This document shows, in pieces, positions 1-40,958 of a stretch of DNA of 53,666 bases (positions are counted from its first letter, which is position 1; each line of letters starts with the position of its first letter). Source of the stretch: Thermotogota bacterium (lineage in GTDB: Bacteria; Thermotogota; Thermotogae; Petrotogales; Petrotogaceae). The stretch spans positions 1 through 53,666 of the forward strand of contig JBNJGY010000007.1 in assembly GCA_051748045.1 (NCBI GenBank), written 5' to 3'. The notes beneath the pieces are model-generated. The model saw nothing but the letters and a program-made list of their open reading frames with translations. It was not told the DNA's origin and searched no databases. Made by a program: the position numbers and the translations under genes.

Positions 1-129
1 CAACAACAAGCTCCACAGCAACAACAACAAGCTCCACAACAACAACAAGCTCCACAACAACAACAAGCTCCACAACAACAACAAGCTCCACAACAACAAC
101 AATCGCCACAGCAACAACAACAGGCTCCG
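1..129 (+). repeat. Coding tandem repeat, at least 7 units of (CAA)3-5-GCT-CCA encoding Q3-5-[A/S]-P
   Basis: Direct reading: three exact 18-bp units CAACAACAACAAGCTCCA at 37-90 plus variant units on either side; begins before the window edge. Confidence 0.95.
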
Positions 130-522
130 CAACAATTCAATAATGACTATGCGCAAAACTCAAATATAATTAATCAAGGAAGTGAGGTAAACGTGAATCC
201 TGTTAATTTTGGAGAAATTTCAGACAGTAATCAACCTCAGCAAAATACACAAAATATAGATATGAACAAATTACAATTACTACTTGATGTTCCTCTTGAA
301 ATAAAAGTAGAACTTGGAAGAGTTCAAATGTCATTGAAAGAAGTTTTAGATTTACATAATGGTTCAATGCTTCAATTAGATAAACTTGCTGGTGAACCTT
401 TAGATATATATGCAAATGGAAAATTAATTGCTAGAGGAGAAGTAGTTGTTATTGAAGAAAGTTTTGGTGTAAGAATAACTGAAATAGTATCATTAAAAGA
501 AAGGCTTAGAACACTTAAATGA
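1..522 (+). CDS. fliY: Flagellar motor switch protein FliY/FliN, 5'-truncated by window edge
   Basis: Frame 1 is open from base 1 through the Q/P-rich linker into the ORF-track ORF 193..522. C-terminal SpoA/FliN domain ([15 protein letters not shown]...[35 protein letters not shown]). The long upstream linker favours FliY over stand-alone FliN. Confidence 0.85.
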
Positions 523-1160
523 TAAAAAGAAAAATATTGTTACTAATACTTTTTGTTTTATTTTCAATATTAATTATAGCTCAAAATCATTTCGAAGATT
601 ATATAAGCACTTATTCTGGAAAAGGAAACTTAGGAATAAGTGCTTCTTTGACATTTGAAATTGATGAAGAAATGAATTTTGAAACTACTGTTAAGTATAT
701 TAATAATAGATATTTAATTGTGGAAATCATAAAACCAGAAATATTTTATGGTATTGACTATATATATGATATGTATAAAGGTGTTTTCTTCACGAAACAA
801 AATGAGAATTTAGATAAATATAGTGAGGTAAGTGTAATTACAGCTAGTATACCATCTATTTTTAACACTTTATTTATTTCATTTCAACCAAATAAACTTA
901 ACAAGGAATATGACGAAAATGATGAAAGACTAATAGAAACATACACTCCAAAATCAAAAAATATGCTTAGACTTTTGGGAATAGATTTTATTAAATTTAA
1001 AGTTTATTTTTCAAAACCAGTTAAAGGCATTTATACTTTTTCAAAATTTGAAATATTGAATTCTAATGAAGATAAAAAAATAATTTTAGAAATTGAGAAT
1101 ATAAGTTTTCTAAATGAACAACAAAGTTTAGAAATGATAAAAAATATTTTAAATAATTAA
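519..1160 (+). CDS. Exported hypothetical protein, possibly LolA-like fold
   Basis: N-terminal signal peptide ([21 protein letters not shown]); ATGA overlap with the fliY stop; beta-rich segment [20 protein letters not shown]. Confidence 0.7.
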
Positions 1161-1871
1161 TTCAGGTAGTAAATAATTTTTAAATTTTTCTTTTCTTTTT
1201 TCTTTATCTATACCTAAATAACCAATTTGGTTATTCAATATATCGATATCTCCGGGTTTACCATGACCTGGAGTTATTTTATTTATGTTGAAATTAATTG
1301 ATAGTTCATTGAGAACCTTTTTCCAAACAAATTCATCACTTAGCATTTTCTCTGGATGAGAATCAGAAAAAATTAAATCGCCACTAATTAAAAGATTAAT
1401 AGGTTTAACAAAATATACTGTACTATCTGGTGTATGCACACCTATTTTATTAGCAGAAATTATCTGGTTATCAAAAACAAAATGATTTGTTTTTTCAAAA
1501 AGATCCAATTTTTTATCATTTAGGTGATTTTTTATAAAAGAAAAATTATAACCAGCTTTAGAAGACAAACTCTTTAAATAATTCTTATTTAAATTAGAAA
1601 GAATATCATATAATGAATAATTCAAAACAACTTCTACATTCACATCTGAAAAAATCACGCCAAAAGAATGATCAGGATGCCAATGTGTTAAAAAAACTTT
1701 ATCCAATTTTTTCCCTGTTTTGCTTTCCATTAGTTTTTTCATTTCAACAAATTTATTCGGATATAAAGTACTATCAAAACAAATTAAAGAATCAGTATAT
1801 TCTATGAATACTACATTTGAAGATGCATTTTCAAACCAAAAAGTATAAGTATTTTCATATTTTTCTAACAT
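1149..1871 (-). CDS. MBL-fold metallo-hydrolase (cyclase/glyoxalase II-like)
   Basis: THWHPDH (HxHxDH), HTPDS, SGD and PGHG motifs; AGGAG RBS upstream. Confidence 0.9.
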   Translation of the reverse strand: MLEKYENTYTFWFENASSNVVFIEYTDSLICFDSTLYPNKFVEMKKLMESKTGKKLDKVFLTHWHPDHSFGVIFSDVNVEVVLNYSLYDILSNLNKNYLKSLSSKAGYNFSFIKNHLNDKKLDLFEKTNHFVFDNQIISANKIGVHTPDSTVYFVKPINLLISGDLIFSDSHPEKMLSDEFVWKKVLNELSINFNINKITPGHGKPGDIDILNNQIGYLGIDKEKRKEKFKNYLLPELII

Positions 1872-1909
1872 TCAATCAACTCCTTTAATTAATATTTCCT
1901 TTAAAACTA

Positions 1910-1938
1910 TTGTAAATCCTTTTATTTAATGATATAAT
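1910..1938 (+). promoter_or_regulatory. Sigma70-type promoter of the ABC exporter operon
   Basis: TTGTAA (1910-1915), 17-bp spacer, extended -10 TG-A-TATAAT (TATAAT at 1933-1938). Confidence 0.6.
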
Positions 1939-1976
1939 TTTGTAAGTAATACTAACTAATTTATGAGGTGGTAAAA

Positions 1977-3704
1977 TTGCTAATAAAAAGTTATTTTAAA
2001 AAATATTGGTGGAAATATGCACTTGGTATTATTTTTCTTTTAATTGTTGATTATATTCAAATTATAATTCCTAGAAGGATTGGTAGAATCATTGATTATA
2101 TAGGAAATGATTCGTGGGATTTAGATAATTTAAAAATATTAGTTTTAGGAATTCTGATGCTTGCCACAGGGTTAGTTATAGGTAGATTTTTTTGGAGATT
2201 TTTTATAATAGGAGCAGCAAGATTATTTCAATATAAAAATATTAATGCAATGTTTGATCATATAATAGAAATGGATCAGAATTTTTATGACAAATGGAGA
2301 ACAGGAGACCTAATGACAAGGTTTACTTCGGATACAAAGCAATTGGAAAGATTGATGGGACCAGCAATAATAATGTTTGTTGATACACTTTTTATGACAG
2401 TTATGACTGTTGTGGCGATGGGAACTTTTGTTGATTGGGAATTAACTTTCTTTTCAATACTCCCCTTACCTATTATAGCAATTATTTCTCTATTTTTTGG
2501 GAAGATTATTCATAAAAGATTTACAGAAGTACAAGAATCAACAAGTGAACTTTCAAATATAACTGAAGAAAGTTTATCAGGGATGGATGTAATTAAATTA
2601 TACTCTAATAAAAAAACTATGAGGCGTTTATTCAACAATAGTTCAAAGGATTATTTCGATTCATACATAAAGCTAATTAAAATATGGGGTTTGATGCACC
2701 CATTAGTAACATTTTTAGGATCTTTAGCCCAATTATTTGTTTTCTTTTTTGGTGGGAAAATGGTTATCAATGGTGAAATTACTCTCGGAGATTTTATAAT
2801 GACAAATCAATATGTAGGAATGTTGATTTGGCCAATGATGGCATTTGGTTTCTTAGTAAATACAATTCAAAGAGGTAGAGCTTCATTGAAAAGAATAAAT
2901 AATGTATTAGCTCAGGAAAGAAATGTTATTGAACCTGAAAAGAAAGAAATAAACTTTGAAGGACATTTTGAAATAAAAAATTTGGATTTCAAATATCCTA
3001 CAAGTGAACGAAAAATATTAAAAAATGTAGATATTGATATTAAACCTGGAGAAATGATAGCTTTTGTAGGTAAAGTGGGTTCAGGCAAGTCGACTGTGGG
3101 CAAATTGATGGCAAAACTTTATCCTATTGAAGAAAATTCTATTTTTGTTGATGGACAAGACATAAATAGTATACATGGAGAATTAATCAGAGAACATGTC
3201 TCATACGTACCTCAAGATAATTTTTTATTTTCAATGAGCATAAGAGAAAACATAGCATTTTCAAATATAGATTTAGCTCCTAGGGCTGAAGAGTTTGCTC
3301 AAAAAGCAAGTGTAGATGAGGATTTAAGAAAGCTTGATAAAGGTTATGAAACAGTTGTAGGCGAAAGAGGAGTTACTTTATCTGGTGGACAAAGACAAAG
3401 AGTAACTATTGCAAGAGCATTAGCTAAAAAATCAAAAGTAATCATTTTAGACGATTGCTTATCAGCTGTTGATACAGAAACAGAGGAAAAAATTATAAAA
3501 AATTTAAGAGAAGAAACTATTGGAAAAACAATAGTAGTTATTTCTCATAGATTAAAAGCGGTTAAAGATGCCAATAAAATTTATGTTTTTGAAGATGGAA
3601 TAATTAAAGAAAGTGGAACACATAATGAATTACTTAATAATCACGATGTATATTATGACATGTATCAAAAACAACTAATAGAAGAAAAACTAGAGGAGGA
3701 ATAA
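1977..3704 (+). CDS. Heterodimeric multidrug ABC exporter, subunit 1 (BmrC/YheI-like)
   Basis: 6-TM domain plus NBD: GKVGSGKS, LSGGQRQR, degenerate Walker B IILDD. ORF track starts at GTG 1968, which lies inside the GAGGTG RBS; TTG 1977 is the better start. Confidence 0.92.
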   Translation: MLIKSYFKKYWWKYALGIIFLLIVDYIQIIIPRRIGRIIDYIGNDSWDLDNLKILVLGILMLATGLVIGRFFWRFFIIGAARLFQYKNINAMFDHIIEMDQNFYDKWRTGDLMTRFTSDTKQLERLMGPAIIMFVDTLFMTVMTVVAMGTFVDWELTFFSILPLPIIAIISLFFGKIIHKRFTEVQESTSELSNITEESLSGMDVIKLYSNKKTMRRLFNNSSKDYFDSYIKLIKIWGLMHPLVTFLGSLAQLFVFFFGGKMVINGEITLGDFIMTNQYVGMLIWPMMAFGFLVNTIQRGRASLKRINNVLAQERNVIEPEKKEINFEGHFEIKNLDFKYPTSERKILKNVDIDIKPGEMIAFVGKVGSGKSTVGKLMAKLYPIEENSIFVDGQDINSIHGELIREHVSYVPQDNFLFSMSIRENIAFSNIDLAPRAEEFAQKASVDEDLRKLDKGYETVVGERGVTLSGGQRQRVTIARALAKKSKVIILDDCLSAVDTETEEKIIKNLREETIGKTIVVISHRLKAVKDANKIYVFEDGIIKESGTHNELLNNHDVYYDMYQKQLIEEKLEEE

Positions 3705-3706
3705 GG

Positions 3707-5641
3707 ATGCCATCATCACATGAAGAAATCTTACTAGAAGAAAAAGAAAAAAGCAAAAGCGATATTCATACCTTTAAAAGATTATGGAAATATATTAGAA
3801 ATTACAAGATGATATTAGTTATTGCTTTTATAACGCTTTTTTTGGCAGCAATAATAGATTTGGCATTACCTTATTTTATAAAATATGGAATAGATAATTA
3901 TATAACTGTTGAATACAATTTCTCTTATAATGAAACTGAAAATTCTTTTGAAATAGATCCAGAGGGTAAATGGGTATATAAAGATAACAACAATGAAAAT
4001 ATAATAGTTAATCAAGAAACTAATGAAAAGAGAGAAATAAGTCAAGAGCTTGTTAATTTAGCTAAAAGTGATAATATCTCAAGCATAACATTCTTTTCAT
4101 TAATATTCTTAGGTATTCTTTTAGTTGGAATTTTATTTAATTATGGGCAAGTTTATTTTTCTAATTTATTAGGTCAAAGAGTTATTTATAATATACGGAG
4201 TGATTTATTCGAACACATAACAAAAGTTCAATATAAATTTTTTACCAAAAATCCTACAGGTAAAATAAATACTAGAATTGTTTATGATACTCAAAATTTA
4301 TCTGAATTTTTTTCTGAGGTTTTAAGTAGTTTGTTAAAAGATATTGCTGTTTTAACAGGAGTAGTAATATTGATATTCACTTTAAATGTTAGATTATCTT
4401 TATATACAGTTATTACTTTTCCTATTGTTTTATTTTCTTTATATTTATTCAGAATATTTGATAGAAAAGCTTACGATAAAGTTAGAACAAGAATAAGTGT
4501 AGTTAATTCATATCTAGCAGAAAATATATCTGGAAGTAGTGTAACTACTTTATTTAATCAGGAAAAAAGGAAGAAAAAAGAATTTGATCATTTAAGTAAT
4601 AAATTGTATAGAGCAAGAATTCAACAAATGTATGTTTTTGCTATTTTTAGACCTGCGATGAATTTTCTCTATTTTTTAACACTATCAATTCTTTTATGGT
4701 TTGGTTCTCAAGGTGTAAGAGAAGGATTTACGACATTTGGTACTTTATACGCTTTTACTTCTTATGTTCAAATGTTCTTTAGACCTTTGTTTAATATAGC
4801 AGAAAAATATGACATAATGCAAAATGCCTTTGCTTCAGCAGGAAAAATATTTAGATTATTTGATGCGAAACATGAATACTTAGGAAAAGGAATAAAAAAA
4901 GACTTAACCCAAGGAGAAGTTAGGTTTGATAATGTAGAATTTTCATATAAGAAAGAAGAAGAACAAGTTTTAAGAGGAGTAAACTTTAATATTAAAGCCA
5001 ATGATAGAGTTTCTATAGTTGGTGAAACTGGTTCAGGTAAAACTACTATGATTAAATTAATGAGTGGTTTATACGAAATCGATAAAGGTGAAATTTATTT
5101 TGACGAAGTTCCACTTTTTGATTATGATCTGGATTCTCTTAGAAGAAAAATAGCAGTTGTTCCTCAAGATGTTTTTCTTTTTTCAGGAAATATTATTGAA
5201 AATATTAGATTATTCAATAATGAAATAACTGAAGATGAAGCCATAAACGCAGCAAAGGAAGTTTATGCTCATGATATAATACAAAAATTACCAGAAGGTT
5301 ATTATACAGAAATAATGGAAAGAGGGGGAACTTTATCTTCAGGAGAAAGACAGTTGATAGCATTGGCAAGAGCTGTATTATTCAATGCTAAGATAATAAT
5401 TCTTGACGAAGCTACTGCAAATATAGATGTTCAGACAGAAGATTTGATTCAAAAAGCACTTGATAAGATTGCTCATAATACTACCATAATATCCATCGCA
5501 CATAGATTATCTACTGTTAAAAGTTCAAATAAAATACTTGTAATGCATAAAGGATTAGTAGTTGAAGAAGGCTCTCATAATGAACTCATAGATAAAAGAG
5601 GAATTTATTATGATTTATATAAACTACAATTTGAAAATTAA
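3707..5641 (+). CDS. Heterodimeric multidrug ABC exporter, subunit 2 (BmrD/YheH-like)
   Basis: TMD with extracellular insertion between TM1 and TM2; GETGSGKT, degenerate signature LSSGERQ, consensus Walker B IILDE, AHRLST. Confidence 0.92.
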   Translation: MPSSHEEILLEEKEKSKSDIHTFKRLWKYIRNYKMILVIAFITLFLAAIIDLALPYFIKYGIDNYITVEYNFSYNETENSFEIDPEGKWVYKDNNNENIIVNQETNEKREISQELVNLAKSDNISSITFFSLIFLGILLVGILFNYGQVYFSNLLGQRVIYNIRSDLFEHITKVQYKFFTKNPTGKINTRIVYDTQNLSEFFSEVLSSLLKDIAVLTGVVILIFTLNVRLSLYTVITFPIVLFSLYLFRIFDRKAYDKVRTRISVVNSYLAENISGSSVTTLFNQEKRKKKEFDHLSNKLYRARIQQMYVFAIFRPAMNFLYFLTLSILLWFGSQGVREGFTTFGTLYAFTSYVQMFFRPLFNIAEKYDIMQNAFASAGKIFRLFDAKHEYLGKGIKKDLTQGEVRFDNVEFSYKKEEEQVLRGVNFNIKANDRVSIVGETGSGKTTMIKLMSGLYEIDKGEIYFDEVPLFDYDLDSLRRKIAVVPQDVFLFSGNIIENIRLFNNEITEDEAINAAKEVYAHDIIQKLPEGYYTEIMERGGTLSSGERQLIALARAVLFNAKIIILDEATANIDVQTEDLIQKALDKIAHNTTIISIAHRLSTVKSSNKILVMHKGLVVEEGSHNELIDKRGIYYDLYKLQFEN

Positions 5642-31186: not shown

Positions 31187-32224
31187 TCATTTTTTTATTA
31201 GTTTGTTAGTTATAGGTATTATTTCATTAGCATCATAAGCTGTTCCATCAGCGCCTAACTTATCTACAATTCTTTCATTTCCTCTTATTGCATTACCTCC
31301 AACCAGTATTTTGACATCCGGAAATTCTTTTTTAACCATATTAATCATTTTTTGAGCATCTTTTAAATAAATGCTGAGAGAAATAGATATTCCCAAAACA
31401 TCAACAGTATGATTTTTTAAAATATCTAGAACACTTGAAATTGTTGAAGAACTTCCTATAAAAATAGTTTTCCAGCCATCACTCTCTAAAAAATCGCATA
31501 TCATTCTAAGACCAACTTCGTGATTATCATTAGGCGGACAGACTCCTAAAAAAACTGGTGAATTATCTTTATAAGTTTTTATGTTTAAATTGAATTTTTC
31601 CATAGCTCTTCTTGTAATAGCAGTTCCATAATGTTCTTGAGCTACTGATATCATATTTTTTTGCCACAATTCTCCTAATTTATGTAATGCCATTTGGAAA
31701 ATATTTAAATATATTTCTTTTGCTTTATAACCTTTTTCTCTTATTTTATCAACAACTTCAAAGGCTTCTTCTTTATCCAAATTGAGAATTGCTTCCAAAT
31801 ATTTATTGTAAAAAGAATACAAATCATTATCAAGGTATATTTTTTCTAAATTATCTCTTTCTTTATCTTCTATCTTGAGTCTATCATTAATTGAGTTTTG
31901 AATTGTAGAATCAATAATGCTATAAATTTTCCCGCCATAATCATTCTCTAATAAAAGAGAAATAGCTTCACTTAAAGCGTATAATGATCTAATTAATTCA
32001 TGAACAGATAAATTGTAAGAAATAAAAACATCTCTTAACCATTCAAAATAATTAGTGAAAATCCTTGGTTCTCCATAATCAACTGTAAGGTCTAAATATT
32101 TCAAATGGTAAATCATATCATCAATATCTTTTTGGCCTGATACTTTAATATTTTTTTCTTTAAAAATTTTCAATGTTTTTTTTATTATCCGATCTTGATT
32201 TTTAACAAGAATATTTTCATCCAT
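31187..32224 (-). CDS. Cobalamin-binding sensor protein (helical/globin-like N-terminus + CarH/AerR-type B12-binding domains)
   Basis: W-x9-EH (WQKNMISVAQEH), DxHxxG (DNHEVG), VLGISIS, ILVGG. Start moved to ATG 32224, 1 nt after the cheBR stop, GGGGAG RBS. Confidence 0.88.
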   Translation of the reverse strand: MDENILVKNQDRIIKKTLKIFKEKNIKVSGQKDIDDMIYHLKYLDLTVDYGEPRIFTNYFEWLRDVFISYNLSVHELIRSLYALSEAISLLLENDYGGKIYSIIDSTIQNSINDRLKIEDKERDNLEKIYLDNDLYSFYNKYLEAILNLDKEEAFEVVDKIREKGYKAKEIYLNIFQMALHKLGELWQKNMISVAQEHYGTAITRRAMEKFNLNIKTYKDNSPVFLGVCPPNDNHEVGLRMICDFLESDGWKTIFIGSSSTISSVLDILKNHTVDVLGISISLSIYLKDAQKMINMVKKEFPDVKILVGGNAIRGNERIVDKLGADGTAYDANEIIPITNKLIKK

Positions 32225-32225
32225 T

Positions 32226-35000
32226 TTAACACTCCCCATCAAATTTTATAAAACAATTAATTTTACCGTCTGATCTTTCAAAGAAAATTTCAAATATTTT
32301 TTCCTTATTCTTAAATTTTATTTTTGATTTTATAATTTCTGCAGATTTAATAGCTTCTTCAAAAGATGCTATTATATTTTGTCTATAATTATCATCAATC
32401 AAACTAAAAAAAGAATTATTGAAAATATATTTTTTAGTTTTGGATATGTAATTAATAAAACAATTATTTGCAATATCCACATAACCATCAAAACTTAAAA
32501 CGATAAAAATCTCATCTGATAAATTTAATAGAGAGATATTATTTGAGTTGTTCTTTCTTATATCAGTTATATCTAAAAAAGTTATAATTACCCCTTTCAT
32601 GACATTTTCTGTTGTTAAATATGGGAGTATTCTAAGCAAATAAACTTTACCTTTATTAGCTTTACTCACCAAATATTTTTCTACAGGTTTCATATCATCC
32701 AAAACTGTTTTACAGTCCTCATAAATATCATTATAGTCAAAATTATTTGTTATATGATAAATAGGCCTACCTAGATCTACATTCATTAAGGAAAATTCTT
32801 TCTTCGCTGATGGAGTAAATTTTCTTATTTGCAAAGTCTTATCTAAGAAAATAGTACCAATATTATTTGCATTTAAATAATTATTCAAATCGTTATTTGC
32901 TTCAGTCAGTTCTTCGATTTTACTTTGGTATTCACTATTAACTGTGTATAATTCTTCGTTTACAGATTGTAATTCTTCATTTGTGCTTTGTAGTTCTTCA
33001 TTTGAACTTATTAGTTGTTCATTTGCAGATTGTAGTTCTTCATTAGAAGTTTCAAGTTGTTGGATAGTCTTTTGTAAATCATCATCTTTTTTAATGAGTT
33101 TATTTTCTAAGTCATCTATTCTTTCTTTCATATTTTCATTAATATCAACTACATTATATTTTTTTGGTTCAATATATTCATCATTTTCTTCGAAACTAAC
33201 TAAAAACATACCTAAATCTTTTAAAGATCTAACTGAAACAACGACTCCTTTATCGGTTATATAATTTTTGTTGTCACTGTTATTTTTCTTTGATTTTAAT
33301 ACTAAAGATTCAATTATAAATCTCATATCCTTTGAAAACATGCTCAAAATGTTTAAAGAAATTTTACCGTCAGATATTTCCATGAATCTTCCAGCGCCTT
33401 TGAAAATATGAATTAGATTAAAGTCGGGATCTATTAAAATAGAAGGAGGTAGAAATTCTTCTAATAAGTTTTCAAATACATGTGGATTTTTTTCTTTTGG
33501 ACTATTATTAGATATCTCAGTATCATTTTGCAGTTTTTTTTCATTTCTGCTTATAATCTTACTATAATTATAAATAGTACTTTTTTTATTAGTACTTCCA
33601 CTTAAATAGTTGAAAAGTTTGGCTTTAGTATCAATTATTTTAAACATATCAGTCAATGAACCAATTGATTCACTAGGTCCTAAAAATAAATATGAATTAA
33701 AATTTAGTGCGAAATGGAACATAGATAAAATTTTTTCTTGTTCATCAGAAGTTAAATAAATTAAAAGGTTTCTACAAGATACCAAGTCTATTTTTGAGAA
33801 AGGCGGGTCATTTACAATATTATGTTTCGAAAAGATAACTTTTTTTTTGATTTCATTACTAACGTGGTATTTATTTCCTTTTTTAATAAAGTATTTTTCT
33901 AGGTATTCTTTAGGGATATCTGAAATAATATTATTAGAGTAAATACCTTGATTAGCTTTGCTTAAAGAATCTTCATTCAAATCAGTTGCGAAAATTTTAT
34001 AATTTACATTTTTATTTATTTTTTCAATGGCATCTTCAAAAAGAAAAGCTATAGTATATGATTCTTCACCAGAAGAACAACCTACATCCCAAATTCTTAT
34101 TGTGTGACCTTCTGGTGAGTCATTAACTAAATTTATAATAGCTTTTTCGTATAGAATTTTAAAATATTCTTCGTCTCTAAAAAATTCAGTAACTCCAATA
34201 AGTAGTTCTCTATAAAGTCTATCTATTTCTTTTTCACTATTTTTCAACAAACTATAATACTCATTAACATCTGTCAAATTGTGAGCCTTAATTCTTTTTT
34301 CTATTCTTCGAGAAATTGTTTCTAGCTTATAAGATTTAAAATCAACATCTTTTTTAATTTTAATTATGTCAATTATTTTATAGAAAGATTGTCTTTTATT
34401 ACTGTTGAGATTTTCTTTAGAGTAAAATAAACTTCTAGATATTTCGTTTAGTTTGTAAGCGATTTCAACTGGAGGCAAAATATAATCAATATAACCACTA
34501 TCAATTGAGTTTCTTGGCATACTATCAAATTCACAAGAATCTGGCGATTGAGCTATAGTAATTCCTCCTGATCTTTTAATTACTTTAGAGCCTTCAGTTC
34601 CGTCTGAACCTGTGCCTGATAAAACTATAGATATTGCCCTAGAGTATTTATCAAAAGCTAAAGATTTAAAGAAAGTATTTATTGGTAAATTATTAGAATC
34701 ATGATGTTTAAGATTATCTAAGTATAATTTATCTTCATAAATTTTCAGGAGCTTATTTGGTGGAATCAAATAAATTTTGTTTGGCTCAACTAACAATCCA
34801 TTTTTAGCATATATTATTTCAAGGTTTGTTTTTCTACTTAATATCTCATCCATATAGCTTTGGTGGTCCGGAGATAAATGTTGAATTATTACATAAGCCA
34901 TGTTTTCATTAGGCTCCAACACTTCAATTAAATTTTCTATAGCTTTTAGACCACCAGCGGAAGCACCAATAGCTGCGACAAAAATATTATCTCTATTCAT
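32226..35000 (-). CDS. cheBR: CheB/CheR fusion protein with coiled coil and PAS domains, no kinase output
   Basis: Che[20 protein letters not shown]; Che[34 protein letters not shown] heptad repeats; two C-terminal PAS-like domains. Confidence 0.95.
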
Positions 35001-35056: not shown

Positions 35057-35752
35057 TTAACTTGTTTTTTTATTTAGAAAATCATCACTCAAATGTCCAT
35101 TATCTAATTTCAATATTCTTTTAGAATATTTTTTTATTAAATATTCATTGTGATTAATCATTAATATTGTAATACCCATCTTCTCATTTATAAAATTAGT
35201 AAGAGTCATAATTTTTTCAGCCATATTTGGATCTAATGCTGCTGTATGTTCGTCTAATAATAAAATATTTGGTTCAGAAATAGAAGCAATTATCAAAGAG
35301 AGAGCTTGTTTTTGCCCACCAGAGAGTTCTTTGACATTAGTTTTTAACCTTTTTTCAAGTCCTATACCTAAATTTTTCAATAAATCAATTCCTTTGATTT
35401 TTCCAAACTTAAAAAATCTATTCCCTTTTTTAGAACCTAAAATTAAGTTTTCTTCAATAGACAGATCAGGAAAAACTCCGGTATCAGGGTTTTGATACAC
35501 AATACTAATATTTTTAAGTATCTTATAAGAAGGAATTTTAGAAGTATTTTTATTATCTAAAAAATAATGACCATCTTGCGGTTTAACATCTCCTGTTAAT
35601 ACTTTAAATAGAGTTGATTTTCCAGAACCATTAGCTCCTATTACAGTTATCAATTCGCCTTTAATAAATTGAAAGGAAAAATTTTCTAAAGCGACTTTTT
35701 CATTTATTTGACCTTTATTATATATGACTTTAATTTCTTTAAGCTTAACCAT
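35057..35752 (-). CDS. ABC transporter ATP-binding protein (TrpZ-like)
   Basis: GANGSGKS, LSGGQKQ, LLLDEHTAALDP (typical of this importer family). Confidence 0.92.
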   Translation of the reverse strand: MVKLKEIKVIYNKGQINEKVALENFSFQFIKGELITVIGANGSGKSTLFKVLTGDVKPQDGHYFLDNKNTSKIPSYKILKNISIVYQNPDTGVFPDLSIEENLILGSKKGNRFFKFGKIKGIDLLKNLGIGLEKRLKTNVKELSGGQKQALSLIIASISEPNILLLDEHTAALDPNMAEKIMTLTNFINEKMGITILMINHNEYLIKKYSKRILKLDNGHLSDDFLNKKTS

Positions 35753-36696
35753 TTTTTGACCTCCTCATTTCTTATTCCAATCATTATGATAATAAAAGCA
35801 GAGGTTAAAAGTTTCATATCCCCTGGAGTAAAACCAATTTTATATCCGTGTTTCATAACTAACGCTATAACAAATTGGTAAACAACCCCACCAGTAAAGG
35901 CAAACAAGAGATTGTATAAAACATTTAATTTTCCTAAAATAATTTCTCCAATAATAACTGCAGCTAAAGATGAAACTACTATACCTTGTCCCATGTTCAC
36001 ATCGGAAAACCCTGAATAAATTGCAAAAAAACTACCTGATAATCCCGGGAAAAAATTTCCCAGAAATAATCCAAAGTAACTAAAAACATTTGGGTTCATT
36101 CCTAAATTTTTAATACCTTCTTTATTATTTCCAAAGCCTCTTAATGCTAAGCCAAACTCTGTCTTAAACAATAATGCAAGTATCAAAATTATCAGAGCAG
36201 AAATAGTTAATAATGTAAAAATATTTATGTTAAAAGATTTAAAATTTATAACAGATTTTATAGATTCATCTTTTGACACTTTCGGTGTATCATTATTATT
36301 TTCAAAAAGAAAATCTAGTTTTGTTCCTCCTTCATAAATTACTTCTTTTGAAGAAGTTTCTTTTGGTACAGTTATGTTAGGTCCATCCATTATTCTTAAA
36401 TTTATTGAATATAACATAGTCATAATCAATATACTTGCCAACAAACTATGCATCTTAAACTTATTATACAAAAAAGCTGTAAGGAGCCCAGCTAAACCGG
36501 CAGCTAAAGCTCCAAACAATATTGCCAAAGGGAGGTGAAAATTAAAATATAATAAACTAATAGTAACCGCAGCTCCCAACACATAAGAACCATCAGGTGT
36601 CAAATCAGGTAAATCAATAACTCTAAAAGAAATAAACACACCTAACGCAGCTAATGAAGCTATTAAACCTTGTTCTAAAATACTTATAATGTCCAT
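35704..36696 (-). CDS. ABC transporter permease (TrpY-like)
   Basis: FRVIDLPDLTPDGSYVLG, LYSINLRIM, FSDVNMGQG, AAVIIGE. Confidence 0.9.
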   Translation of the reverse strand: MDIISILEQGLIASLAALGVFISFRVIDLPDLTPDGSYVLGAAVTISLLYFNFHLPLAILFGALAAGLAGLLTAFLYNKFKMHSLLASILIMTMLYSINLRIMDGPNITVPKETSSKEVIYEGGTKLDFLFENNNDTPKVSKDESIKSVINFKSFNINIFTLLTISALIILILALLFKTEFGLALRGFGNNKEGIKNLGMNPNVFSYFGLFLGNFFPGLSGSFFAIYSGFSDVNMGQGIVVSSLAAVIIGEIILGKLNVLYNLLFAFTGGVVYQFVIALVMKHGYKIGFTPGDMKLLTSAFIIIMIGIRNEEVKKWLSLKKLKSYIIKVK

Positions 36697-36707
36697 GATA
36701 AAACTCC

Positions 36708-37643
36708 TTAATCTATAAAATCTGCATTATCTAATAATTCTGGAGGTAAATCAATTCCATAATGATTTGCTCTTTCTAAATTAATATAAAGCTGCAAAGC
36801 ACTACTAGGCATAAAAGTTGATTCAATGTTTGAAACTTCTTCTCCATCAATTATTTTTTTCACCATTTTACCTGTTTCAACGCCTAAACTTCTATAATCG
36901 AAACCAAAACCTATAACAGATGAAGCTCTAGCAAGGTCTATATCTCCAGAAATAGCTGGTATGTTTTTATCCTCAAAAGTATTAGACAATAATTCAATAG
37001 AAGATGCTACTAAATTATCTGTAAAGATATAAAAAACGTCTACTTCATTACCTCTTGAGTTAATGCCAGTAATCAACTCATTAATGTTAGAACCAGAAAT
37101 CTCTACTGTATTTAAATTTAATTTTTCAGTATAATTTTTGGCTAATTGCACAATTTTTTTAGAGTTCACCTCTCCGGTATTAAAAAGTAATCCTACATTT
37201 TTTACATTAGGCATATAATTTTTAATTAATTTCATATGTAATTCAACAGGTAGCATATCAGAAATACCTACTACATTTTCTGTATTTAAACCCATATTTC
37301 TTATTAAGCCCGCAGCAACAGGATCGGTAACAGCACTAAAAATAATTGGTTTATTACTTATTGAATTAACCGCGGCTTGTGCAGAAGGGGTAGCTATCGC
37401 TACTATTATGTCTGCATCAGAATTGAATTTTTTAGCTATTTGTGTAGCGTTTTGAAATGATCCTTGTGCAATTTGATGATCGTAAACAATATTTTCGACA
37501 TCAGATAACTCTTCTTTTAACCCCTCAAATATTGAATTCAATGCAGGATGTTCCACTATTTGTGTAACCCCAATAGTTACAGCAAAAAAATTTACAAAAA
37601 ATACACTAAGTACTAAAATTACCCCAAAAAATCTTTTTTTCAT
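36708..37643 (-). CDS. ABC transporter substrate-binding protein (TrpX / aromatic amino acid family)
   Basis: IGVTQIVEHPALN, AIATPSAQA, FSAVTDPVAAG, GEVNS, TDN. Start moved from 37706 to ATG 37643 (GGAGGTG RBS, then signal peptide). Confidence 0.9.
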   Translation of the reverse strand: MKKRFFGVILVLSVFFVNFFAVTIGVTQIVEHPALNSIFEGLKEELSDVENIVYDHQIAQGSFQNATQIAKKFNSDADIIVAIATPSAQAAVNSISNKPIIFSAVTDPVAAGLIRNMGLNTENVVGISDMLPVELHMKLIKNYMPNVKNVGLLFNTGEVNSKKIVQLAKNYTEKLNLNTVEISGSNINELITGINSRGNEVDVFYIFTDNLVASSIELLSNTFEDKNIPAISGDIDLARASSVIGFGFDYRSLGVETGKMVKKIIDGEEVSNIESTFMPSSALQLYINLERANHYGIDLPPELLDNADFID

Positions 37644-37668
37644 AAAAACACCTCCGAAAAATTTTGAT

Positions 37669-37704
37669 AAAAAAAGGGTGTCTGCAAAATAAAAGCAGAC
37701 ACCC
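37669..37704 (-). terminator. Attenuator terminator in the 5' leader of the ABC importer
   Basis: Minus strand GGGTGTCTGC-(9 nt)-GCAGACACCC-T7, located between the promoter and the first structural gene. Confidence 0.9.
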
Positions 37705-37725
37705 AAAATTGTTTTTGTTTAGTCC

Positions 37726-37833
37726 TTATGCACCCATGACGAAATATGCACCGGATTGACAAAACTGAGTGTCTTTCCAGTACCAATAATATGCATATGA
37801 ATTATTTATTTTTAATGAGAAATGATTAGACAT
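37726..37833 (-). CDS. Tyr/Trp-rich attenuator leader peptide, 35 aa (MSNHFSLKINNSYAYYWYWKDTQFCQSGAYFVMGA)
   Basis: Translated by hand: ATG 37833 to TAA 37726; AGGTGA RBS at 37839-37844; YAYYWYW cluster at codons 13-19; absent from the ORF track. Confidence 0.85.
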   Translation of the reverse strand: MSNHFSLKINNSYAYYWYWKDTQFCQSGAYFVMGA

Positions 37834-37866
37834 AAAAATCACCTAAATCCTTTTTAAATTGATTTG

Positions 37867-37895
37867 ATTATATCACCTTAATTTTATATTGTCAA
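37867..37895 (-). promoter_or_regulatory. Consensus sigma70 promoter for leader + ABC importer
   Basis: TTGACA (37895-37890), 17 bp, extended -10 TG-A-TATAAT (TATAAT at 37872-37867). Confidence 0.85.
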
Positions 37896-37951
37896 ATGGC
37901 TAATAAAAATAAACAGAAATATACTGTATAATAATTTGGGAGGTGTACTTA

Positions 37952-38188
37952 ATGCAAGAAATAAAAATAGAAAAAATAAAAAAAGAACAATTAATTGAAG
38001 AAATAAAAAAGTATTTTTTTAACGAATCAGGTGAAGATATCGGGAACCTTAGAGCTAGAATGATTCTTGAATTCTTCTTAGAAAAGCTAGGTCCAGTCAT
38101 ATACAATCAAGGCGTTAATGATGCTCATGCTTATATGAAAAATAAATTAGATGAAGTTTTTGAGATAGAAATATATAAAAAAAGATAG
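37952..38188 (+). CDS. DUF2164 family protein
   Basis: IKKYF..E.GEDIGNLRA..ILEFFLEKLGPVIYNQGVNDA pattern; start moved from 37943 to ATG 37952. Confidence 0.8.
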   Translation: MQEIKIEKIKKEQLIEEIKKYFFNESGEDIGNLRARMILEFFLEKLGPVIYNQGVNDAHAYMKNKLDEVFEIEIYKKR

Positions 38189-38213
38189 CAATTCTAAGAA
38201 TTGCTATCTTTTT
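38179..38213. terminator. Bidirectional terminator
   Basis: AAAAAGATAGCAATTC-TAA-GAATTGCTATCTTTTT between convergent genes. Confidence 0.85.
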
Positions 38214-40182
38214 ATTTTAAATGATCAGTTGGGCTTTTATTTTTTGAAATAAAATAAATAGGAATCACATAACTACCTAAAATAAATATAGAAAATATGA
38301 ATAAATATAGATAATTATTATTTATTTTAAATATATTTACATGTTCTTTTATAAAAAGAAATTCAAATAATTGCCAGAAAAAATACAAACTTATAATAGC
38401 ACTTATTATAGAAATAATATAAACATATAAGTACTCTTTGAATAATTTTAAAACTACTTCTAAATTTTGAAACCCGAAAATTTTCATTAAAGCTATCTCC
38501 TGTTTTCTTGAAAGAGTATTTTTAATGATGATAAATATATTGATCAATATAGATACAAAAATAATAATAGTATTTATAATATTGCCTATAAAAATCATGA
38601 AATAATTATCTTCCTCTATTTGTTTTTTTAATAATTTATAATTAATAAAATTATTACCCAGGCTATCTTTAAGTATAATATAGCCATTTTTGCTATCTTC
38701 TAAATCTGCAAGAGATGTATTTGACAAATTGTAGATTTTTTGTGTTCCAAATGGTAATTTATAATTAATCTCTTCATAAGTTACAGGTATTATCTTATCA
38801 TTTTCAAGATCATCTAAATGTTTTTGTTCAAAAAATTCAATATTTTCTTGAGTTACAAATGTTTTTCCTTTAAAATATTCAATATTATTTAATTGAACTT
38901 GATAATTAGAGTTGGATAAAGAAGTAAAAAAAACTATCAAAAAAATAAAAACAAGGTTAGAAATAAAAAGATACTTAAAATTACCTGATCTTTGTAGATA
39001 TTTAAAAAAGACAAACTTTTCATTTTTGTAATTAATCTCATCTTTTACATTCATTTTCTTTACTAAATTAAAAATATTCCCTTTTATAATTTTCTTTGAT
39101 TTGTAAAAAATATATAAAATAATAAATAAAGGAATTAAAACAGAAGTAATGTAAATACTAATATCTTCTTTAATAAACATACCAACATCATTAAATATTT
39201 GTTTTTCAATAATACTCAAAAAAGGTTTACTAATTAAAATACCTAAAAGCCAACCAGTGATACTTATAATTGAATATTGAAAAATATTTTTTAATATAAT
39301 ATATTTTTTAGTATAACCAAATGCGTGTAATAACGAGATTTCTTTATACTGATCTTTTAAAAAATAGCTAAAGAAAATTACAATTCCCAGAATGAAAATT
39401 ATGGCTATTAAAATATTCATAAAAATATTCTGAAAAATGTAACTAAAATATCTTTTAAAAAAACTTCTTCTTATAGTCTCTGGTGTTTTTATATAAATGT
39501 TATTGTTCATAAAATCACTAGATCTAATGGATTTTTCAATTGCCTTAAATTGCATTTCATTGCCCAAAATTAAAAAAGTATTATAAGTATCTTTATCATC
39601 TATATAACTTTCATCTATAAAAGCCATTAAAGAAGTATTATCTAAAACTCCAGAAATTTTAAGTTCATTATTGTAAAAGAAATCAGAATTAGGTTTATAA
39701 AAATCACCAATCCATAAACCATGTGAATCTAAAAAACCTTCAGAGGCAACTAATTGTCCATTCTTGAATAAATTCCCATCTGTTAAATTAATACCTAGTT
39801 TATCTATTAAGCCTTCTATTCTATTTGTTTTTCCAACTATTGCCTGAAAGGTCCCTTCAGAAGATCTAAAATATTTATAAGAAAGATTAACAGACTTGAA
39901 TTTATAAATATCGATTTCTTCAAAATGATCTGTTTTTATTTCATACAGATACTTCTCAAATGAATCAATTTTATCTTTATATATATTAATAGTCATAATG
40001 TCATCATTTATCATTGATGTTTTTAACCTGGTATCAGCAAAAGATTTAAAAATACTACCAGTTACAATCCCTGCCAATACAGCGATAGAAATTATAAATA
40101 CTAAAAAAAATACCTTCAATTTATTTCTTGAAAAAAATACTAGAATATTTTTTATCATACTAATCATTCCCATATTCTTCAA
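38212..40182 (-). CDS. FtsX/MacB-like ABC permease (duplicated)
   Basis: Two FtsX-type motifs (KEISLLHAFGY; RKQEIALMKIFGF), multiple TMs; exact start uncertain (40182-40158). Confidence 0.8.
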   Translation of the reverse strand: MKNMGMISMIKNILVFFSRNKLKVFFLVFIISIAVLAGIVTGSIFKSFADTRLKTSMINDDIMTINIYKDKIDSFEKYLYEIKTDHFEEIDIYKFKSVNLSYKYFRSSEGTFQAIVGKTNRIEGLIDKLGINLTDGNLFKNGQLVASEGFLDSHGLWIGDFYKPNSDFFYNNELKISGVLDNTSLMAFIDESYIDDKDTYNTFLILGNEMQFKAIEKSIRSSDFMNNNIYIKTPETIRRSFFKRYFSYIFQNIFMNILIAIIFILGIVIFFSYFLKDQYKEISLLHAFGYTKKYIILKNIFQYSIISITGWLLGILISKPFLSIIEKQIFNDVGMFIKEDISIYITSVLIPLFIILYIFYKSKKIIKGNIFNLVKKMNVKDEINYKNEKFVFFKYLQRSGNFKYLFISNLVFIFLIVFFTSLSNSNYQVQLNNIEYFKGKTFVTQENIEFFEQKHLDDLENDKIIPVTYEEINYKLPFGTQKIYNLSNTSLADLEDSKNGYIILKDSLGNNFINYKLLKKQIEEDNYFMIFIGNIINTIIIFVSILINIFIIIKNTLSRKQEIALMKIFGFQNLEVVLKLFKEYLYVYIISIISAIISLYFFWQLFEFLFIKEHVNIFKINNNYLYLFIFSIFILGSYVIPIYFISKNKSPTDHLK

Positions 40183-40807
40183 GGTCTAAAACAATATCAT
40201 ATTCAAAAGTGCTATTTTGATGAGAAATATAAAAAACAGTCAGATTATATTCTTTAGAAATTTTGTTTATTAAATTAATAACATTTTCTTTATTTTTTAG
40301 ATCCAAAGAAGATGTTGGTTCATCAACGAATAAAACTTTTGGACTATTTATTAAAGCCCTTGCTATTGAAGCCCTTTGTTTTTGACCTCCGCTAACTTCA
40401 GAAGGAAATTTATCCAAAATTTCTAATATATCCAATGTTTCAGAAAGCTTCTCTGGAGAAATATTTGGTGTACCTTTTTTTACTGGTAGTAAAATATTTT
40501 CTTTTATTGTTAAATAATCTATAAAAAAAGATTCTTGGAAAACAAAACCAAAATCTTTGTTTCTTATGTTATCTCTTGTTTTTTCATCTATTTCATTAAT
40601 ATTCAAATCATTATAAATGATTTTTCCTGAATCAGGTTTAATCAATCCGCTTAACAGATTAATCAATGTAGTTTTTCCATAACCCGATTTTCCTTTAATA
40701 AAAATATTTTTATCATCTGGAAAAATCATACTGAAGTCTTTAAAAATTATTTTTTCTTTTTTAAAATTATTTTTATATTTGAAAAATACGTTTTTCATTT
40801 CAAACAT
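40160..40807 (-). CDS. ABC transporter ATP-binding protein (LolD/MacB-like)
   Basis: GKSGYGKT, FGFVFQ, VSGGQKQR, VDEPTSSLD, SH. Start moved from 40843 to ATG 40807. Confidence 0.9.
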   Translation of the reverse strand: MFEMKNVFFKYKNNFKKEKIIFKDFSMIFPDDKNIFIKGKSGYGKTTLINLLSGLIKPDSGKIIYNDLNINEIDEKTRDNIRNKDFGFVFQESFFIDYLTIKENILLPVKKGTPNISPEKLSETLDILEILDKFPSEVSGGQKQRASIARALINSPKVLFVDEPTSSLDLKNKENVINLINKISKEYNLTVFYISHQNSTFEYDIVLDLEEYGND

Positions 40808-40958
40808 AAAATAATCACCCCCCTTATATAAATTATATATCATAATATATATAATAATCGCATGAAAAAAGTAATTATTTATATATTTTTTAATATAAAT
40901 AAAAATTAGTATAATATAAATGTGATAAAAATTTAGGGATTATTTAAGGGGGTATAAA

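Follow-up and report, generated by a model that had tools for sequence, protein, structure and literature searches.

In Escherichia coli, the trp operon, pheA and pheST are preceded by the leader-peptide attenuators trpL, pheL and pheM, respectively. Each of these combines a uORF (upstream open reading frame) containing codons for a single cognate amino acid with an intrinsic terminator, an antiterminator that excludes the terminator, and an upstream hairpin whose 5' arm lies over the regulatory codons, and their targets are biosynthetic operons or an aminoacyl-tRNA synthetase. Here we analyze a stretch of 53,666 nucleotides (nt) from a Thermotogota bacterium (GenBank assembly GCA_051748045.1, contig JBNJGY010000007.1, positions 1 to 53,666 of the forward strand; "the window" below), in which a leader on the minus strand, at 37669-37895, brings the same parts together 5' of the genes for a three-component ATP-binding cassette (ABC) importer. 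This leader is very probably a classical ribosome-mediated leader-peptide transcription attenuator controlling an importer for aromatic amino acids. Unlike trpL, pheL and pheM, it has a mixed, Tyr-dominated codon run, it precedes an importer, its hosts are titled Thermotogota, its antiterminator strand abuts the codon run with only the early codons well placed, and it has no sequence or Rfam relationship to them. The mechanism itself is not new; it is the codon content, the target and the host lineage that are.

The general mechanism of leader-peptide attenuation has been described elsewhere (PMC9413887). According to a 2013 survey, attenuator specificities were known for His, Leu, Thr and Trp, with those for Ile/Val and Phe characterized as well, nearly always at biosynthetic operons and with Proteobacteria at the center (PMC3766115). 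Comparative genomics has also predicted such attenuators where T-boxes or riboswitches were expected, namely His leaders at hisS/hisZ of the Bacillus cereus group, reported as the first for Firmicutes (PMC2965389), His attenuators in Firmicutes (PMC9413887), and uORFC-13-1, with Phe codons, 5' of aroF in Acholeplasma together with uORFC-8-2 5' of cysS (PMC8632094). The present leader is likewise a comparative-genomics prediction, but in the accessible text of these three sources none of the cases is Tyr-rich or of mixed aromatic content, concerns a PF04392 importer or comes from Thermotogota. A Thermosipho genome was analyzed in PMC8632094, and its text and supplement text contain no related motif, a depiction in the supplement figures being possible. 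Related transporters can be under a different device, as the TrpX importer of Streptococcus suis is part of a T-box-controlled TrpXYZ system (PMC9382623). That system has in common with the present locus the PF04392/PF02653/ABC ATPase gene family, a tRNA-charging signal, and a choice between termination and read-through 5' of the binding-protein gene, whereas its sensor is a tRNA-binding RNA and the sensor proposed here is a ribosome translating a uORF. For CD0873, a binding protein of Clostridioides difficile discussed below, the accessible text of PMC6816091 makes no mention of a leader peptide. Full-text literature searches brought up no report of leader peptides with Tyr-rich or mixed aromatic runs, none of a PF04392 transporter preceded by a leader peptide, and none of Thermotogota using amino-acid leader peptides. 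Candidate attenuators in Thermotogales are reportedly mentioned in a comparative study that Vitreschak and colleagues published in 2004.

In the direction of transcription, the leader begins with a sigma-70-type promoter (37867-37895), in which TTGACA (37895-37890) is followed after a 17-nt spacer by an extended -10 element, TGaTATAAT (37875-37867; TG 37875-37874, TATAAT 37872-37867). Six promoter-like sites occur in 37300-38300, which is no excess over shuffled sequence (mean 6.1), and this is the only perfect one among them, matching at 12 of 12 positions and carrying the TG. The Shine-Dalgarno sequence AGGTGA (37839-37844) lies 5 nt 5' of the ATG (37833) of a 35-codon uORF (37726-37833; TAA 37728-37726) that encodes MSNHFSLKINNSYAYYWYWKDTQFCQSGAYFVMGA, a peptide with 10 aromatic residues. 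Codons 13-19 of this uORF (37777-37797), TAT GCA TAT TAT TGG TAC TGG, form the putative regulatory run YAYYWYW, with four Tyr, two Trp and no Phe. The leader ends in an intrinsic terminator (37669-37704) built from a GC-rich stem of 10 base pairs (bp), GGGUGUCUGC (37704-37695) with GCAGACACCC (37685-37676), a 9-nt loop, and U7 (37675-37669). Our promoter/terminator program accepts loops of at most 8 nt and did not list this terminator because of its 9-nt loop; it was recovered by a separate custom scan. From promoter to terminator the leader spans ~190 nt, most of it taken up by the uORF. The exact focal peptide is missing from a collection of 15 billion proteins, hence it has never been called as a gene, and the same collection lacks eight of ten homologous leader peptides, the other two being listed as genes with no name. 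Two of four sequencing runs found were used, one of DNA (X1) and one of RNA (X2), and X1 spans the leader.

Three helices can form within the leader, of which the antiterminator excludes the terminator. The anti-antiterminator hairpin P1 (37748-37783) pairs GUACUGGA (37783-37776), which coincides with codons 17-19, with UCCGGUGC (37755-37748), and has an inner stem of GACA (37773-37770) and UGUC (37761-37758). Enclosed within P1 is the antiterminator 5' strand (37759-37774), consisting of AGACACUCAG (37774-37765) and UUUUGU (37764-37759). This strand can pair alternatively with an antiterminator 3' strand (37697-37718), in which ACAAAA (37718-37713) is the partner of UUUUGU and UUGGGUGUCU (37706-37697), overlapping the terminator 5' arm, is the partner of AGACACUCAG. 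A sequence-only reading of the window, which preceded this analysis, had named the promoter, ribosome-binding site, 35-codon uORF, YAYYWYW run, 10-bp terminator and U7, along with an antiterminator pairing of AGACACUCA (37774-37766) with UGGGUGUCU (37705-37697) and the sequestering P1 pairing with its inner stem; all of these are present on the minus strand at the coordinates given here.

The minimum-energy fold of the full leader contains P1 and the terminator (z = -3.8, with no equally good fold among 200 shuffles), with energies of -15.7 kcal/mol for P1 at 37 C and of -20.0 and -13.8 kcal/mol for the terminator at 37 and 55 C, respectively. Since equilibrium folds of the whole leader say nothing on a kinetic switch, whole-leader folding was replaced by that of a transcript truncated before the terminator 3' arm. 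In this nascent transcript the 16-bp antiterminator is the minimum-energy fold (-23.5 kcal/mol). The duplex of the antiterminator strand with the terminator arm has an energy of -12.8 kcal/mol, compared to a shuffle mean of -6.7 kcal/mol, and none of 200 shuffles is as low.

The leader is retained in related genomes. In a first sample, a homologue of the binding protein was found in 38 of 61 related genomes, and every locus with E < 1e-20 was taken, which gave 45 (30 loci and 15 further upstream regions). uORFs were called by a script that required at least 4 aromatic residues per 7-residue window. An aromatic-codon uORF followed by a terminator was present at 43 of the 45 loci, 38 of these uORFs having mixed Tyr/Phe/Trp content, 4 being Trp-only (WWW) and 1 Phe-only. 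The script placed the uORF correctly in 29 of the 30 loci, and the thirtieth, L015, carries MFESNYSNFNMNNWWWHL. Among the 15 further upstream regions were nine mixed leaders, three Trp-only leaders (N-x-WWW-KRTLS), one Phe-only leader, and two regions without a leader; the Phe-only run, IFSFFRGG, is under the script threshold and was spotted by eye. The 29 homologous leaders all have the terminator, and 27 of them have a Shine-Dalgarno-like motif 4-16 nt 5' of the uORF start (L009 has none and L025 is cut by a contig end). A second sample, centered on a more distant relative, had matches in 19 of 58 genomes, and the uORF was present at 17 of 17 evaluable loci, starting with ATG in 13, GTG in 3 and TTG in 1. 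The runs at these loci follow the pattern F-A/S-Y-A/I-Y-W-W-F, with Y-G-W-W-H at L142; L128, cut by a contig end, and L143, not evaluable, stand outside the count. Conserved aromatic-rich uORFs upstream of homologous binding-protein genes, a search for which the sequence-only reading had proposed, were found in both samples, and retention of the element across related genomes excludes a chance origin.

Among the 80 named-genome loci listed, which are mostly from Proteobacteria, five (L032-L036) carry the leader, and L031 was left unflagged for want of the Shine-Dalgarno-like motif that the script required here. The remaining 74 loci listed comprise 72 with no aromatic uORF and two (L072, L107) with weak, chance-like ones. 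The named carriers listed are titled Thermotogae, Petrotogaceae, Kosmotogales and Pseudothermotoga, with one Patescibacteria. In that last record (L032, titled Patescibacteria group bacterium) the leader peptide is identical to that of L006 and the binding protein is 54% identical to the query. The L032 contig may be mis-binned, as all other leader carriers have Thermotogota titles.

The leader peptides vary in length between 25 and 44 aa, and the aromatic run is all that they have in common across subfamilies. What follows the run is kept as pairing potential: in every subfamily, the nucleotides immediately after it repeat the local terminator 3' arm and are able to pair with the 5' arm, as in AGACACCC with GGGUGUCU, GGCAUCCAC with GUGGAUGCC, AUGCCCUCUU with AAGAGGGCAU, CCCUCUU with AGAGGG, and GCCCUUU with GAAAGGGC. 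In L011, the stop codon comes immediately 3' of the antiterminator strand. Mean duplex energies were -15.3 kcal/mol for cognate strand and arm, -10.6 kcal/mol for strands with the arms of other subfamilies, and about -7.7 kcal/mol for shuffles, and at most 3 of 200 shuffles reached the observed energy in 26 of the 29 leaders. Duplex energies and shared words were used in place of column-wise antiterminator covariation across subfamilies, which was dropped because, in alignment A2, subfamilies A and B are 4 columns apart in their pairing register. For P1 and the terminator, an RNAalifold consensus of 13 same-family leaders recovered both helices, with the P1 5' arm formed by the W-Y-W codons and the antiterminator strand enclosed. 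Compensatory changes occurred at 11 of the 24 pairs, and 95.5% of cells were paired, a level reached by 0 of 500 shuffles, versus 38-46% with partners slid by 1-3 columns. Taken separately, P1 had changes on both sides at 6 of 14 pairs with 92% of cells paired (0 of 500 shuffles), and the terminator had compensatory changes at 5 of 10 pairs with 100% of cells paired. The elements, their mutual exclusivity, their conservation and their co-variation are thus present in the sequences themselves. The trpL/pheL-type, ribosome-mediated mechanism that the sequence-only reading had proposed draws support, all of it at the sequence level, from the retained uORF, ribosome-binding site and terminator, from the co-varying antiterminator and the compensatory changes in P1, from the lack of a T-box or other Rfam match, and from the Tyr, Phe or Trp held by solved relatives of the binding protein, both reported below.

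We infer from these data that the leader is translated, that ribosomes stall within it, that the helices fold in a kinetically determined order, and that particular codons act as the sensor. A stalled ribosome is assumed to reach ~12 nt along the mRNA in the 3' direction, counted from where its A-site codon begins, a generic figure. By this footprint, a stall at Tyr13, Tyr15 or Tyr16 covers the P1 5' arm and leaves the antiterminator strand free, a stall at Trp17 covers 2 nt of that strand, and a stall at Tyr18 or Trp19 covers most of it. By the stop codon (37728) the ribosome is past P1, which is then free to re-form, and part of the antiterminator 3' strand lies under the ribosome, favoring the terminator. 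In the proposed mechanism, transcription would start at ~37860 from the consensus promoter and a ribosome would load on the 35-codon leader. With ample charged tRNA-Tyr, probably with tRNA-Trp as well and with tRNA-Phe in relatives, the ribosome would pass the aromatic run and reach the stop codon. Behind it P1 (37783-37748) would re-form and make the antiterminator strand inaccessible, after which the terminator hairpin (37704-37676, with U7) would form and RNA polymerase would halt 5' of the binding-protein gene. With charged tRNA-Tyr scarce, the ribosome would instead stall at codons 13-16, possibly 17, covering the P1 5' arm and leaving AGACACUCAG free to pair with the terminator 5' arm once this is transcribed, so that no terminator would form and the importer operon would be transcribed. 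Truncated-transcript folds of most of the 29 leaders are of this kind, in that the terminator 5' arm is paired upstream as long as the modeled ribosome has not gone beyond the early aromatic codons, and is freed once the ribosome is past the run. In these 29 leaders, the antiterminator strand begins 14-28 nt after the first aromatic codon.

Several observations weigh against this mechanism. At whole-leader equilibrium, the terminator has a probability of ~1 with the ribosome at any codon in 11 of 15 leaders, the focal one included; because the terminator wins at nearly every ribosome position, the switch would have to be kinetic. In the focal nascent transcript, the antiterminator is the fold of lowest energy without a ribosome as well, and in the free RNA the terminator arm is paired upstream with a probability of 0.62. 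For termination to occur under plenty, P1 would therefore have to form first and the ribosome to be suitably placed, which are again matters of kinetics. The antiterminator strand also lies only 0-11 nt past the first base of the last aromatic codon in the 29 leaders, and stalls at the last one or two codons, Trp19 included, should therefore mask it. Complementarity of the antiterminator does not stand out from shuffles in L002 (22 of 200), L030 (19 of 200) and L029 (6 of 200), and the shared-word test was not significant for L002, L007, L025, L027, L029 and L030. Two of the 45 loci, L117 and L123, had no aromatic uORF, and the related genomes are non-independent observations whose counts overstate independence. 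The sole RNA library found with part of the window (X2) contributed one 252-nt contig, at 37371-37622, inside the binding-protein gene. L123 (G050:C178) and L117 (G056:C9) are more distant paralogues of the binding protein; at L123, a GC-rich terminator-like hairpin lies just 5' of the gene, with no reading frame accounting for it.

The operon 3' of the leader consists of genes for a 311-aa substrate-binding protein (36708-37643, minus strand; ATG 37643, ribosome-binding site GGAGGTG at 37655-37649; Pfam PF04392 ABC_sub_bind, E 1e-67), a 330-aa ABC permease (35704-36696, minus strand; PF02653 BPD_transp_2) and a 231-aa ABC ATPase (35057-35752, minus strand; PF00005 ABC_tran). Against the NCBIfam TrpX model (NF041285) the binding protein scores 210.4 bits with a cut-off of 390, which by sequence makes it a relative of TrpX and not an equivalog. 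Its nearest solved relatives are 6hni (E 5e-51), 3lkv (E 1e-49) and 3lft (E 2e-36). CD0873 of C. difficile (6HNI/6HNJ/6HNK) holds Tyr with a KD of 94 uM, VC_1101 (3LKV) holds Phe, and SP1069 (3LFT) holds Trp (PMC6816091). These ligands make an aromatic amino acid a reasonable family-level inference for the substrate of the focal protein, in line with the importer target that the sequence-only reading had assigned. Glu-263 and Tyr-279 are specificity positions of CD0873 (PMC6816091). A finer ligand prediction from these positions was rejected, as the focal Asp234/Tyr250 are identical behind mixed, Trp-only and T-box (UGG) leaders and so do not discriminate.

The host genome (2.41 Mb, 28% G+C, 99.65% complete) appears suited to regulation of this kind. 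Prephenate dehydrogenase, prephenate dehydratase and indole-3-glycerol phosphate synthase (IGPS) families were not found in it, each being found in 14 of 14 control genomes, and chorismate synthase is present. That no IGPS was found, alongside a stand-alone trpB, suggests indole salvage only, and the organism probably has to import its Tyr and Phe and to obtain indole or Trp. Neither the last genes for Tyr and Phe synthesis nor most of the Trp pathway were found, and regulated uptake would be vital to such an organism. Further candidate leaders are present elsewhere in the genome. In Firmicutes, trpS is typically T-box controlled; here, a Trp leader, MKNQLKYINKRLWWWHL (contig C5:53924-53977, plus strand; L146), lies 5' of trpS (TIGR00233, 296 bits, cut-off 177), and 3' of this leader come alternative hairpins of the GGCAUC/GGAUGCC type, together with two hairpins resembling terminators. 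A second Trp leader, MLKNSLKLNRNWWWHLK, with terminators (C30:20482-20535, plus strand; L155), lies 5' of the stand-alone trpB (TIGR00263, above cut-off), after which comes an ORF for a YgjP-like metallopeptidase, not trpA. The third is a candidate Met leader, MKNNNKTKNININLFNMMMPWRNRFFSHGYFAI (MMM), with a 12-bp terminator (C5:4887-4786, minus strand; L156), 5' of a gene for a MetQ/NlpA-like lipoprotein that matches MetQ family models strongly and under their cut-offs; if correct, control by a leader peptide would extend to a second importer. No similar leader was found upstream of tyrS or pheS in the host genome. T-boxes (RF00230) gave no match in the whole genome, the same search being positive in 5 of 14 control genomes. 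What sets the present case apart is a Tyr-dominated run of mixed aromatic content (Tyr, Phe and Trp) on an importer, conserved and co-varying across several families whose named relatives are Thermotogota, in the setting of a genome in which no T-box was found and which appears to use Trp and Met leaders as well.

Leader codon content appears to track the substrate of the importer, judging from loci at which the binding-protein gene has been duplicated. In genus g16, a WWW leader and binding protein a come first, followed by a mixed leader, binding protein b, the permease and the ATPase. Two loci of this arrangement, L021 (G038, 1-3924) and L020 (G045), with upstream parts L125/L124, have tandem attenuators in one operon, the second being an FYFYYFWW leader with its terminator. 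In G009, three paralogous binding-protein genes have a Trp-only leader (NNWWWHL, L015), a Phe-only leader (IFSFFRGG, L111/L149) and a mixed leader (FSFYFYYW, L112/L151). The Phe-only and mixed leaders share their first 15 residues, so that their duplication is recent. The L151 protein is longer, at 383 aa, and is matched by the query as two overlapping pieces. Behind the Trp leader of L015, a chemoreceptor gene comes next and there is no permease gene; the Trp-leader copies of both g16 and G009 are without a permease and ATPase of their own, and the sole translocator genes lie behind the mixed leader, which contains WW. A tree built from 33 binding proteins gives the Trp-only copies two separate origins, each on a long branch as sister to the mixed copy of the same lineage, and the Phe-only copy is likewise sister to a mixed-leader copy. 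Leader codons thus change with duplication and divergence of the binding protein, which supports codon content as a substrate label. This would amount to a sequence-only substrate prediction for a poorly characterized transporter family, testable through the duplicates with Trp-only, Phe-only and mixed leaders.

A tentative reading of these arrangements, which we regard as possible and somewhat doubtful as a whole, is that the mixed leader is a position-weighted, multi-input sensor in a modular system of duplicated and relabeled binding proteins. An ancestral, broad aromatic importer may have been under a Tyr/Phe/Trp leader, with later, lineage-specific copies gaining their own WWW or FSFF leaders and using one translocator kept behind the mixed leader. 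The early Tyr and Phe codons may open the operon, and the 3'-most Trp codons, which border on the antiterminator, may open it weakly or even close it. If true, there would be a hierarchy between the three aromatic amino acids, codon content would label the substrates of uncharacterized binding proteins, and leader peptides, taken with those of trpS, trpB and the MetQ-like gene, would fill in these Thermotogota the role that T-boxes have in Firmicutes.

In a rival reading of the attenuator, to which we also give limited weight, it would sense tRNA-Tyr only, with tRNA-Phe added in relatives, and the Trp codons would be structural, their G-rich UGG serving in the P1 5' arm. All 29 leaders have Tyr within the run, 27 have Trp there and 25 have Phe; the two subfamilies represented by L026 and L029 have no Trp in the run. 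Where present, Trp codons are nearly always last or second-last, and in the focal leader they end the run and lie inside the P1 5' arm. The antiterminator strand (37774) is +22 nt from Tyr13 and just +4 nt from the first base of Trp19, so by the ~12-nt footprint stalls at Trp19 and Tyr18 mask it, the stall at Trp17 masks 2 nt, and stalling at the last Trp would even favor termination. Separate WWW leaders for Trp also occur elsewhere. In subfamilies D and F, however, a Trp codon lies at +13 nt from the antiterminator, a productive distance, and the footprint length is generic, not taken from these ribosomes. Moreover, the Trp-leader copies in g16 and G009 have no translocator of their own, and the sole one lies behind a mixed leader with WW, which is sensible only if Trp starvation opens that leader too. 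The sequence-only reading had the focal leader sense both Tyr and Trp. Its Tyr part is supported by the productive geometry of Tyr13, Tyr15 and Tyr16, and the Trp part is less secure, with Trp17 marginal and a ribosome stalled at Trp19 covering the strand.

Explanations that dispense with attenuation by tRNA charging fare worse. E. coli tnaC encodes a Trp-containing leader peptide that responds to free Trp, and in this type of system conserved arrest residues act together with Rho-dependent termination downstream. An arrest peptide of this type, sensing a free aromatic amino acid and turning the operon on at abundance, might be read into the Trp of the present leader and the motifs after the run (KDT, FRG, KTKPS) that are kept within subfamilies. 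We consider it very unlikely, as the aromatic run is the sole cross-subfamily feature of the peptide and the conserved downstream residues are encoded by terminator-pairing nucleotides and change together with them. All 29 leaders also end in an intrinsic terminator, the alternative being the classical one of three helices, with no Rho-dependent spacer, and induction of a high-affinity-type importer by excess makes little sense in a genome where the genes for making Tyr and Phe were not found. The good ribosome-binding site and kept position of the uORF, and the calling of two of ten homologous peptides as genes, would also suit a functional small protein, such as a membrane or signaling peptide, with the hairpins a terminator plus incidental structure. 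This is still more improbable given the 25-44 aa spread in length, the early stop of L011, the lack of cross-subfamily conservation outside the run and the eight peptides missing from the protein collection, and it leaves unexplained both a terminator between the gene and its operon partners and a co-varying antiterminator. Scarcely any probability attaches either to a riboswitch, a T-box-like or a protein-binding (TRAP-like) element with an incidental uORF. Such control does occur in this gene family, T-boxes with a UGG specifier preceding two Atribacterota homologues of 38-40% identity (L052:937-1164, L103:874-1082), and together with the present leader these mean that one gene family is controlled through tRNA charging by two different devices. 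In 37400-38300, however, a permissive Rfam scan (E up to 10) gave no family at its gathering score (best 23 bits, threshold 52) and no T-box match; the ~190-nt leader is mostly ORF; and what is conserved in it are codons plus a pair of simple helices that alternate, with no core resembling a ligand pocket. The T-box and Firmicutes framing of the sequence-only reading holds only as an analogy, the relatives of the leader being titled Thermotogota, with T-boxes found at the two Atribacterota homologues. Leader-peptide attenuation is the explanation that we retain.

The importer operon is followed, immediately 3' of the ATPase gene, by a gene for a 924-aa CheB methylesterase/CheR methyltransferase/PAS fusion (32226-35000, minus strand) and then by one for a protein with B12-binding domains (31187-32242, minus strand). 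Divergent from the leader promoter is a DUF2164 gene (PF09932; 37943-38188, plus strand). A perfect palindrome of 16 bp, flanked by T-runs (38179-38213), looks like a bidirectional terminator common to the DUF2164 gene and an upstream FtsX-type ABC operon on the minus strand (38212-40843).

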